This document shows, in pieces, positions 51,098 to 52,195 of a stretch of DNA of 64,000 nucleotides. How positions within the stretch are numbered: the first letter of the stretch is position 1; the number at the start of each line of letters is the position of its first letter. The stretch is from Escherichia phage EcF-vB. The translations under genes were made by a program, and so were the position numbers. A model generated the notes under the pieces. The model worked only from the letters and a program-made list of their open reading frames with translations, was not told where the DNA came from and searched no databases. The DNA lies in sequence record PV683228.1; one strand, written 5' to 3'.

Positions 51098-51334
51098 ATG
51101 AAAATTAAAGAAGTAGTTCAAAAAGCAATGCTTGACAACTCAACTAAAGATGACATGTACAAAGAGATTTGCGATAAGCTGAATTGCTCAAGACATGCTG
51201 CTAAGGTTCTTTTACATTGTTTTATCTGGGAATGCTCAGAAGCTTATATGCAATATGTAATAACTGAAGGACTTGATATGCCTCTACCTGAACGCTTCAA
51301 AGAAGAGACTAAGGCTAGTTCCATAAAAAGCTAA
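51098..51334 (+). pseudogene. truncated copy (78 aa) of 143-aa gene intact at 53965-54396
   Basis: Identical for 77 codons, then 2-nt insertion in an A-run and downstream divergence. Confidence 0.5.
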
Positions 51335-52195
51335 ACACACTCTATACTGTAGAAACTGTCGATACAGGTGAACCAGTAGGTACAATATATCCAAAGCGTG
51401 TGTGATGGTAAGTTTTCTTGGTTATGGTGAAGCAAATGCATATAGTGCATTTTTCAACAGCACACTGGATAGTTGAAAATGATGGGGTATATTAGGTCAG
51501 CTGGTAAGAATACTTTCAAACTTAAATTGTGATTATGGGACACCTACTGAAGAAGACGTGGGAGAACTTAAACAGATACTGAAGTTTCCCATACTGAAGT
51601 AGCAGAGTAGAGAGAACTCCGACAGAATGGGAAGCAATTCTAAGAAATGCTTTCAAGGATTTGATAGAGATGAAAAAGTTTGAAGTTGAAGGTAACTATC
51701 TAGTTCCCTCCACCGGAGTGATGTTCAAGAAGCACTCTCTGAAAAGAAAAAGTCTCTGAGCAGATTAAAAACAGATTGTCTTTCTCAGCACGGGGTTACA
51801 GAGAAGTTAACCATGGTCATAGTACTCTTTGCAAATAGTTCTGGAGTTTATTGTTTCTATGAAGACACTTTGACAGAAGCTTAAGATGTACTTCTAAAAA
51901 CAGAAGAACTGTAAAGTGGCTCACTACGGGTACGTCCTCGGCGGCACAGATGCGTCTGCTGATGGAAGATATCAACCCTAAAGACCAATGTAGAAGGTGT
52001 TTGCATAAAAATCACAGGGCATGAAGAGTACATCAGCTGGCATGACTTTACTGCATTTCTGTAACTGGTTTTCTGCTGCTCTCTTAATGAGTTTTCATGA
52101 TCTATATCCGAGACTACCCAATCAAAGGCAGACGATATCACCACGAGGTATTCGATAACAATGATTGGGCATTTACTTGATTTTTATCAGACAAC
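51310..52195 (+). pseudogene. degraded copy of arm B genes 53297-54185
   Basis: Alignable by eye to reverse complement of 53297-54185 but with many substitutions and indels; no long ORF. Confidence 0.6.

Follow-up and report, generated by a model that had tools for sequence, protein, structure and literature searches.

Plastid inverted repeats and sex-chromosome palindromes are large palindromes that are kept identical by gene conversion from arm to arm. Inverted structures can also be produced while DNA is being amplified: Lasken and Stockwell are said to have described, in 2007, inverted chimeras that come from multiple displacement amplification (MDA), through template switching during phi29 strand displacement. 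High chimera rates have been noted for MDA-amplified phage DNA (PMC13108922, citing Kiguchi et al. 2021), with approximately 50-60% of reads chimeric after MDA of phage plaques (PMC13108922). Long reads carry similar structures. Inverted or fold-back chimeras make up 0.18-7.3% of ONT ligation reads (PMC13141652), and approximately 0.55-0.6% of ONT reads from genomic DNA (PMC12870357), where a fold-back read artefact is defined as one with its breakpoints within 200 bp (PMC12870357).

Here we analyse a stretch of 64,000 nt from the record of Escherichia phage EcF-vB (PV683228.1), referred to throughout as the window, the last 23 kb of which form a large inverted repeat composed of arm A, a centre and arm B. 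The repeat resembles fold-back and inverted chimeric long reads (PMC13141652, PMC12870357) in that opposite strands of one locus are joined, the join is free of adapters and the structure is absent in relatives. We also liken it to long-read chimera artefacts based on a low-accuracy stretch beside the join and indel-type consensus errors elsewhere. Unlike published fold-back reads, its breakpoints are 1,050 nt apart rather than within about 200 bp, the fold is asymmetric about the read midpoint, and the structure is seen in an assembled contig. With MDA chimeras it shares an inverted join with an offset of about 1 kb and further jumps of 0.7-1.1 kb in the same 23 kb, an attribution that we infer from a sequence that itself carries no sign of amplification. 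Like conversion-maintained palindromes, the repeat has long, near-identical inverted arms around a unique spacer. In contrast to them, its arms differ in a one-sided and indel-dominated manner, private frameshifts and deletions occur on both arms, and relatives are without the structure.

Further counterparts are the genomes of Felixounavirus (FelixO1, VpaE1, finno, pinkbiff and Bas63). These share 92-96% identity with the window, are colinear with it across 1-52235 and across 52236-64000, and have a non-coding, heptamer-rich gap in the same position. Unlike the window, the relatives examined have the duplicated region in a single copy and intact genes for DNA polymerase and DNA ligase.

Genome context and layout of the inverted repeat

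By its alignments, the whole window belongs to a Felix O1-like myovirus (genus Felixounavirus). Nucleotide identity to FelixO1, VpaE1, finno and pinkbiff is 92-96%, over 90-96% of colinear queries of 6-25 kb. Specifically, positions 1-25000 match finno and Bas63 at approximately 95%, positions 30000-52246 match VpaE1 and relatives at 94-96%, and positions 52246-58200 are colinear with pinkbiff, FelixO1 and approximately 200 others at 92-93%. The inverted repeat has the following parts.

41150-52235: arm A as a whole, inverted relative to arm B
41150-51324, unstranded: outer part of arm A, a near-exact inverted copy of arm B 54171-64000
51325-52235, plus strand: inner, noisy part of arm A, an error-laden copy with about 85% identity and no intact ORF
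52235-52236, unstranded: putative inverted chimeric junction, placed to within a few nt
52236-53285, plus strand: centre ('loop'), non-coding and native to Felixounavirus; relatives have it colinear with arm B
53286-64000, unstranded: arm B, contiguous with the centre as in related phages; the genes of its inner part are intact

The start of arm A at 41150 is fixed solely by the end of the window at 64000. Arm B runs past this end, and the inverted duplication is at least 10.7 kb long.

Both arms map to one locus, the ORF026c-to-tRNA region of Felixounavirus genomes, on opposite strands. VpaE1, pinkbiff, FelixO1 and Mooglevirus KPS64 have a layout in common: a plus-strand gene block ends, a non-coding gap of approximately 1.7 kb follows, and beyond the gap a long minus-strand block opens with a homologue of the 223-aa gene. 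On the other side of the gap, the annotation of these four phages lists unrelated genes. Given the common layout, we take the centre plus arm B to be the native contiguous arrangement; arm A, as aligned, is the same locus on the opposite strand. The inverted duplication is absent from the annotation of all four phages, and no inverted repeat of 60 nt or more was found in any of the three relatives scanned (VpaE1, pinkbiff and FelixO1). Among the best 15 database records, every one has a single matching place.

The initial annotation had the arms matching almost base for base up to about 51310, and this description holds well. Outside 51325 we find three mismatches, each adjacent to an indel, and approximately 12 indels of 1-2 nt; in addition, the outer arms differ by two large indels, of 1062 nt and 723 nt.

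Profile of changes in the inner part of arm A

The genes at the inner end of the arms are these.

51098-51334, plus strand: 143-aa gene as copied in arm A, which the first error cuts to 78 codons
53297-53968, minus strand: 223-aa gene, intact, in arm B; phrog_4330; no Pfam match; homologues VpaE1 ORF026c and FelixO1 ORF24
53965-54396, minus strand: 143-aa gene, intact, in arm B; phrog_4713

Arm B is itself a mosaic at 53825-54235, an interval that takes in the 5' portion of the 223-aa gene along with the 3' portion of the 143-aa gene. This interval is unmatched in FelixO1, VpaE1 and pinkbiff and is approximately 84% identical to Mooglevirus KPS64, Sf14 and Sf13, with no database phage closer.

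The noisy part of arm A covers the 3' 206 nt of the 143-aa gene, all of the 223-aa gene and 11 nt past its stop codon. The first error in the copy of the 143-aa gene is a 2-nt insertion in an A run at about 51325. Aligned with the reverse complement of 53286-54170, the interval 51325-52235 has 824 matches, or about 85% identity; the differing columns comprise 54-61 insertions, 27-34 deletions and 51-59 substitutions. Thus, the earlier observation that inner arm A can still be aligned with arm B, with frequent substitutions and indels, is confirmed. So is the reported lack of an intact ORF: no open frame in arm A 51325-52235 exceeds 62 codons, compared with 224 codons in the arm B counterpart. 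As for the extent, the alignment does reach 52195 as stated, but it does not end there and continues for about 40 nt, to 52235.

The kinds of change also point to noise. In natural divergence, neutral decay included, substitutions predominate roughly tenfold. Here, 95 indel columns (61 insertion and 34 deletion) stand against 51 substitutions, and insertion events outnumber deletion events by 47 to 15. Transitions and transversions occur at 27:24, with no marked transition excess, and the substitutions are spread over codon positions 1, 2 and 3 as 15, 15 and 20, with no position bias. Raw single-molecule reads typically show approximately 15% error and are insertion-rich.

The changes also have a characteristic shape. 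Calculated per 100 nt, identity is 100% to 51299, 94-95% over 51300-51499, 90-93% over 51500-51699 and 81-85% across 51700-52199, except for one patch of 69% at 51800-51899. In other words, error density in arm A climbs steadily toward the junction. The switch from identity to divergence had been described as abrupt; identity per 100 nt contradicts this and shows a ramp, from 100% through 95% and 90% to 81-85%.

Polarity of the differences between the arms

To compare the arms we used a three-way alignment of arm A, arm B and a relative, with VpaE1 as the relative for 53290-53824 and KPS64 for 53493-54190. Among the sites that distinguish arm B from the relative, arm A has the arm B allele at 20 (VpaE1) and 109 (KPS64) and the allele of the relative at 3 and 9, respectively. 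Arm A therefore shares strain-specific alleles of arm B at 129 sites, compared with 12 at which it has the alleles of the relatives. In columns where the arms differ from each other, arm B agrees with the relative at 143 (VpaE1) and 117 (KPS64). Essentially all differences between the inner arms are thus private to arm A. Based on these allele counts, arm A is arm B plus private changes, and neither an older nor a foreign copy.

Database searches returned no phage record closer to arm A than to arm B. Phage vB_SflM_004, for instance, matches arm A at 81% and arm B at 95.7%.

The junction and the centre

Followed in the descending native direction, arm A ends within a terminator-like hairpin after the 223-aa gene. 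From there the contig jumps 1,050 nt ahead on the native sequence and continues in the ascending direction. This offset of 1,050 nt is the distance between 53286, opposite which arm A stops, and 52236, where the sequence picks up again. Breakpoints this far apart fall outside the strict 200-bp definition of a fold-back (PMC12870357), and for this reason we filed the structure as an inverted chimera with an offset.

Similar short, hairpin-like AGCC..GGCT motifs lie on both sides of the join and amount to imperfect microhomology. Hairpin-like elements of the form AGCC..N..GGCT recur at 53264-53290, 52243-52262 and 52298-52320; one is the terminator-like hairpin behind the 223-aa gene, and several border the centre on its left. 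The join falls between two such elements, and these may have provided the imperfect microhomology for a strand switch.

Comparison with SMRTbell, ONT and Nextera adapters gave only chance-level matches of 8-14 nt, none of them at the junction. A palindromic read with a missed adapter is disfavoured, also since the fold is not symmetric. A literature search on Felixounavirus termini, made in case the junction corresponds to a genome end, returned only one statement, that genomes of this genus have direct terminal repeats, and it gives no position for them.

On the far side of the junction the sequence is clean. The centre is gap-free relative to four relatives up to 52236, and ordinary substitutions are the sole differences. 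Given that the centre is gap-free to the very edge of the junction, the noise is one-sided.

The centre has 19 co-oriented YTGTTAR heptamers in 1,050 nt, compared with approximately 1 per 2 kb per strand elsewhere; CTGTTAAG alone has 17 occurrences in the window, compared with 3.9 expected. The heptamer array is conserved: pinkbiff, FelixO1 and VpaE1 have it in the corresponding non-coding gap, approximately 1.7 kb long, between convergent gene blocks. It resembles an iteron array or a protein-binding array, and the region is perhaps an origin or a regulatory region.

Large deletions and probable errors elsewhere in the contig

Four further features bear on the quality of the contig.

6399, plus strand: private 1-nt deletion in an A-rich run, which splits the DNA polymerase gene into ORFs of 337 aa and 560 aa
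9829, plus strand: private 1-nt deletion, TTT to TT, which frameshifts the DNA ligase gene
42934-43995, unstranded: 1062-nt segment present in arm A and VpaE1, cleanly absent from arm B between 62216 and 62217
56290-57012, unstranded: 723-nt segment present in arm B and VpaE1, cleanly absent from arm A between 49203 and 49204

The DNA polymerase is intact in two independent relatives, finno (907 aa) and Bas63 (909 aa), neither of which lacks the base. The same two phages have an intact DNA ligase gene, again with the extra base present. The deletions at 6399 and 9829 are most likely consensus errors, and gene calls from this contig need care for that reason.

Wherever a small indel separates the outer arms, VpaE1 sides with A in some cases and with B in others, so that private errors must be present on both arms. 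Most of these private small indels are deletions, and several are in homopolymer runs.

The two large indels are of a different kind. The 1062-nt segment contains six tRNA genes (Asp to Pro) together with the 3' end of the 471-aa gene, and loss of the 723-nt segment removes or fuses three small genes. Both lengths are multiples of 3, and no microhomology was found at the breakpoints of either deletion. These deletions are not accounted for by a simple failure of polishing; they would require either additional backbone reads that were chimeric or deleted, or heterogeneity among the phages. Further chimeric jumps are one possible source of them, and deletion variants within the phage population another.

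Origin of the join and of the noisy stretch

Judging from the sequence itself and from comparison with relatives, we hold with considerable confidence that the window represents an ordinary Felixounavirus genome in a long-read assembly that has a chimeric inverted join at 52235|52236, flanked on one side by unpolished sequence. The 0.9 kb at the inner end of arm A is most likely sequencing noise rather than divergence, given that the polarity of the changes, their kind, their shape, their one-sidedness and the quality of the contig all agree.

The initial annotation had offered a low-quality consensus near an assembly fold-back point as one of two readings, and this is the one that the evidence favours. 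It fits changes that are private, indel-dominated, ramped and one-sided and that lack a signature of selection. It also fits the frameshifted essential genes elsewhere and a duplication that is missing in relatives.

From these patterns we infer how reads would have been placed and how the join may have arisen. The chimeric join at 52235|52236 would attach the genome to its own second, reverse-complement copy, with the native path running through the centre (52236-53285) and on into arm B. During consensus building and polishing, reads over the 223-aa gene that extend into the centre would fit arm B plus the centre over a longer distance and would be placed there. Only reads that end inside the last few hundred bases could be placed on arm A, and read support for arm A would drop roughly linearly to zero at the false junction. 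As a result, approximately the final 0.9 kb of arm A would keep the raw errors of the backbone read, at approximately 15% and insertion-rich. Such misplacement of reads would explain why the errors ramp up on one side only and are private to arm A, and why the centre is clean.

The join itself could have originated in a chimeric read, or else through template switching while the DNA was amplified or the library prepared. An intramolecular strand switch is favoured over random ligation of two fragments, given the short distance of 1,050 nt between the breakpoints and the AGCC..GGCT motifs in which both lie. More speculatively, the clean deletions of 0.7-1.1 kb, one per arm in the same 23 kb, would fit repeated template switching nearby, as in phi29 amplification.

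For quality control, this would mean that the contig does not document a phage with a giant inverted duplication, nor one in which a gene pair has become pseudogenes or the polymerase and ligase genes are split. Any gene calls made from the record would be wrong, and so would the genome length and calls of terminal repeats or completeness. A stretch that is one-sided, ramped, indel-rich and private to one copy, and that lies at an inverted junction, may serve as a sign of a chimera that can be read without reads, based on this single case.

Alternative explanations

Alternatively, the fold-back junction could be physically real in some molecules, as a snap-back or defective genome formed by strand switching of the replisome, with the 0.9-kb divergence being low-coverage noise. 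One or a few long reads would then have captured such a molecule. Breakpoints that are 1,050 nt apart, in or near AGCC..GGCT motifs of a repeat-rich non-coding region, are what an intramolecular template switch gives, and a switch in vivo is indistinguishable by sequence from one in vitro. Counter to this, the arms carry different clean deletions (1062 and 723 nt), which would be absent from a hairpin copy of a single molecule, the structure is missing in the relatives examined, and inverted chimeras formed in vitro are common and documented. Moreover, the low support implied by the unpolished stretch would make the molecule a rare species at best. On balance we consider this explanation unlikely. 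Slightly more doubtful again is its specific form, in which the join is an in vivo snap-back (hairpin-type) defective genome produced by strand switching of the Felixounavirus replisome in the heptamer-rich region, and the noise is technical. If this were true, the heptamer-rich non-coding region would become a candidate replication origin or fragile site.

A genuine palindrome, in which gene conversion homogenises the outer arms while inner arm A decays as a pseudogene copy, was the other reading put forward by the initial annotation. Superficially, near-identical arms with a divergent inner part do look like a palindrome with a conversion boundary. Conversion with inner decay would, however, need substitution-dominated changes on both arms, and would leave unexplained the private indels and the differing deletions in arms that otherwise have three indel-adjacent mismatches. 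The changes are all on arm A and none on arm B, indels exceed substitutions by approximately 2:1, and there is neither a marked transition excess nor a codon-position pattern. Divergence of approximately 15% beside arms that have three indel-adjacent mismatches would be an implausible contrast in rate. The private frameshifts and different deletions on the two arms are features that conversion would erase, and essential single-copy genes are frameshifted too. Finally, at least 10.7 kb of extra DNA would need room in a capsid that in relatives, by record length, takes 83-90 kb. We regard this explanation as very improbable.

Equally hard to credit is that inner arm A came from a diverged phage by recombination, or from targeted hypermutation: the Mooglevirus-like mosaic of arm B (53825-54235, approximately 84%) does indicate that the locus exchanges modules, but arm A shares the alleles of arm B even in this Mooglevirus-like part (109 vs 9) and is nearer to no database phage than arm B is, so that the three-way allele test and database searches rule out a recombinant or mosaic origin, whereas DGR-type hypermutation is ruled out by a substitution spectrum that is not adenine-specific, unlike that of diversity-generating retroelements, and by some 60 indel events that wreck the reading frames.

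Other genes in the window

The 377-aa 'tail protein' (phrog_3995), encoded at 47019-48152 on the plus strand and at 58065-59198 on the minus strand, has three Ig-like domains. These are encoded by internal repeats of approximately 250 nt, with 66-71% identity. The homologues of this protein are 294 aa long in VpaE1 and FelixO1 and 461 aa long in pinkbiff. Lengths that change in steps of approximately 83 aa suggest variation in the copy number of the Ig domain within the genus.

A set of 26 tRNA genes on the minus strand (38452-43581) directly adjoins the 471-aa gene, in the region 38452-45162. The product of the 471-aa gene is a DUF2828/DUF7788 'RNA-binding protein' (phrog_850), with gp130 as its homologue in Bas63. 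Bas63 gp130 is described as structurally similar to Ro60 and as countering the Ppl defence system (preprint 10.1101/2024.10.10.617714).
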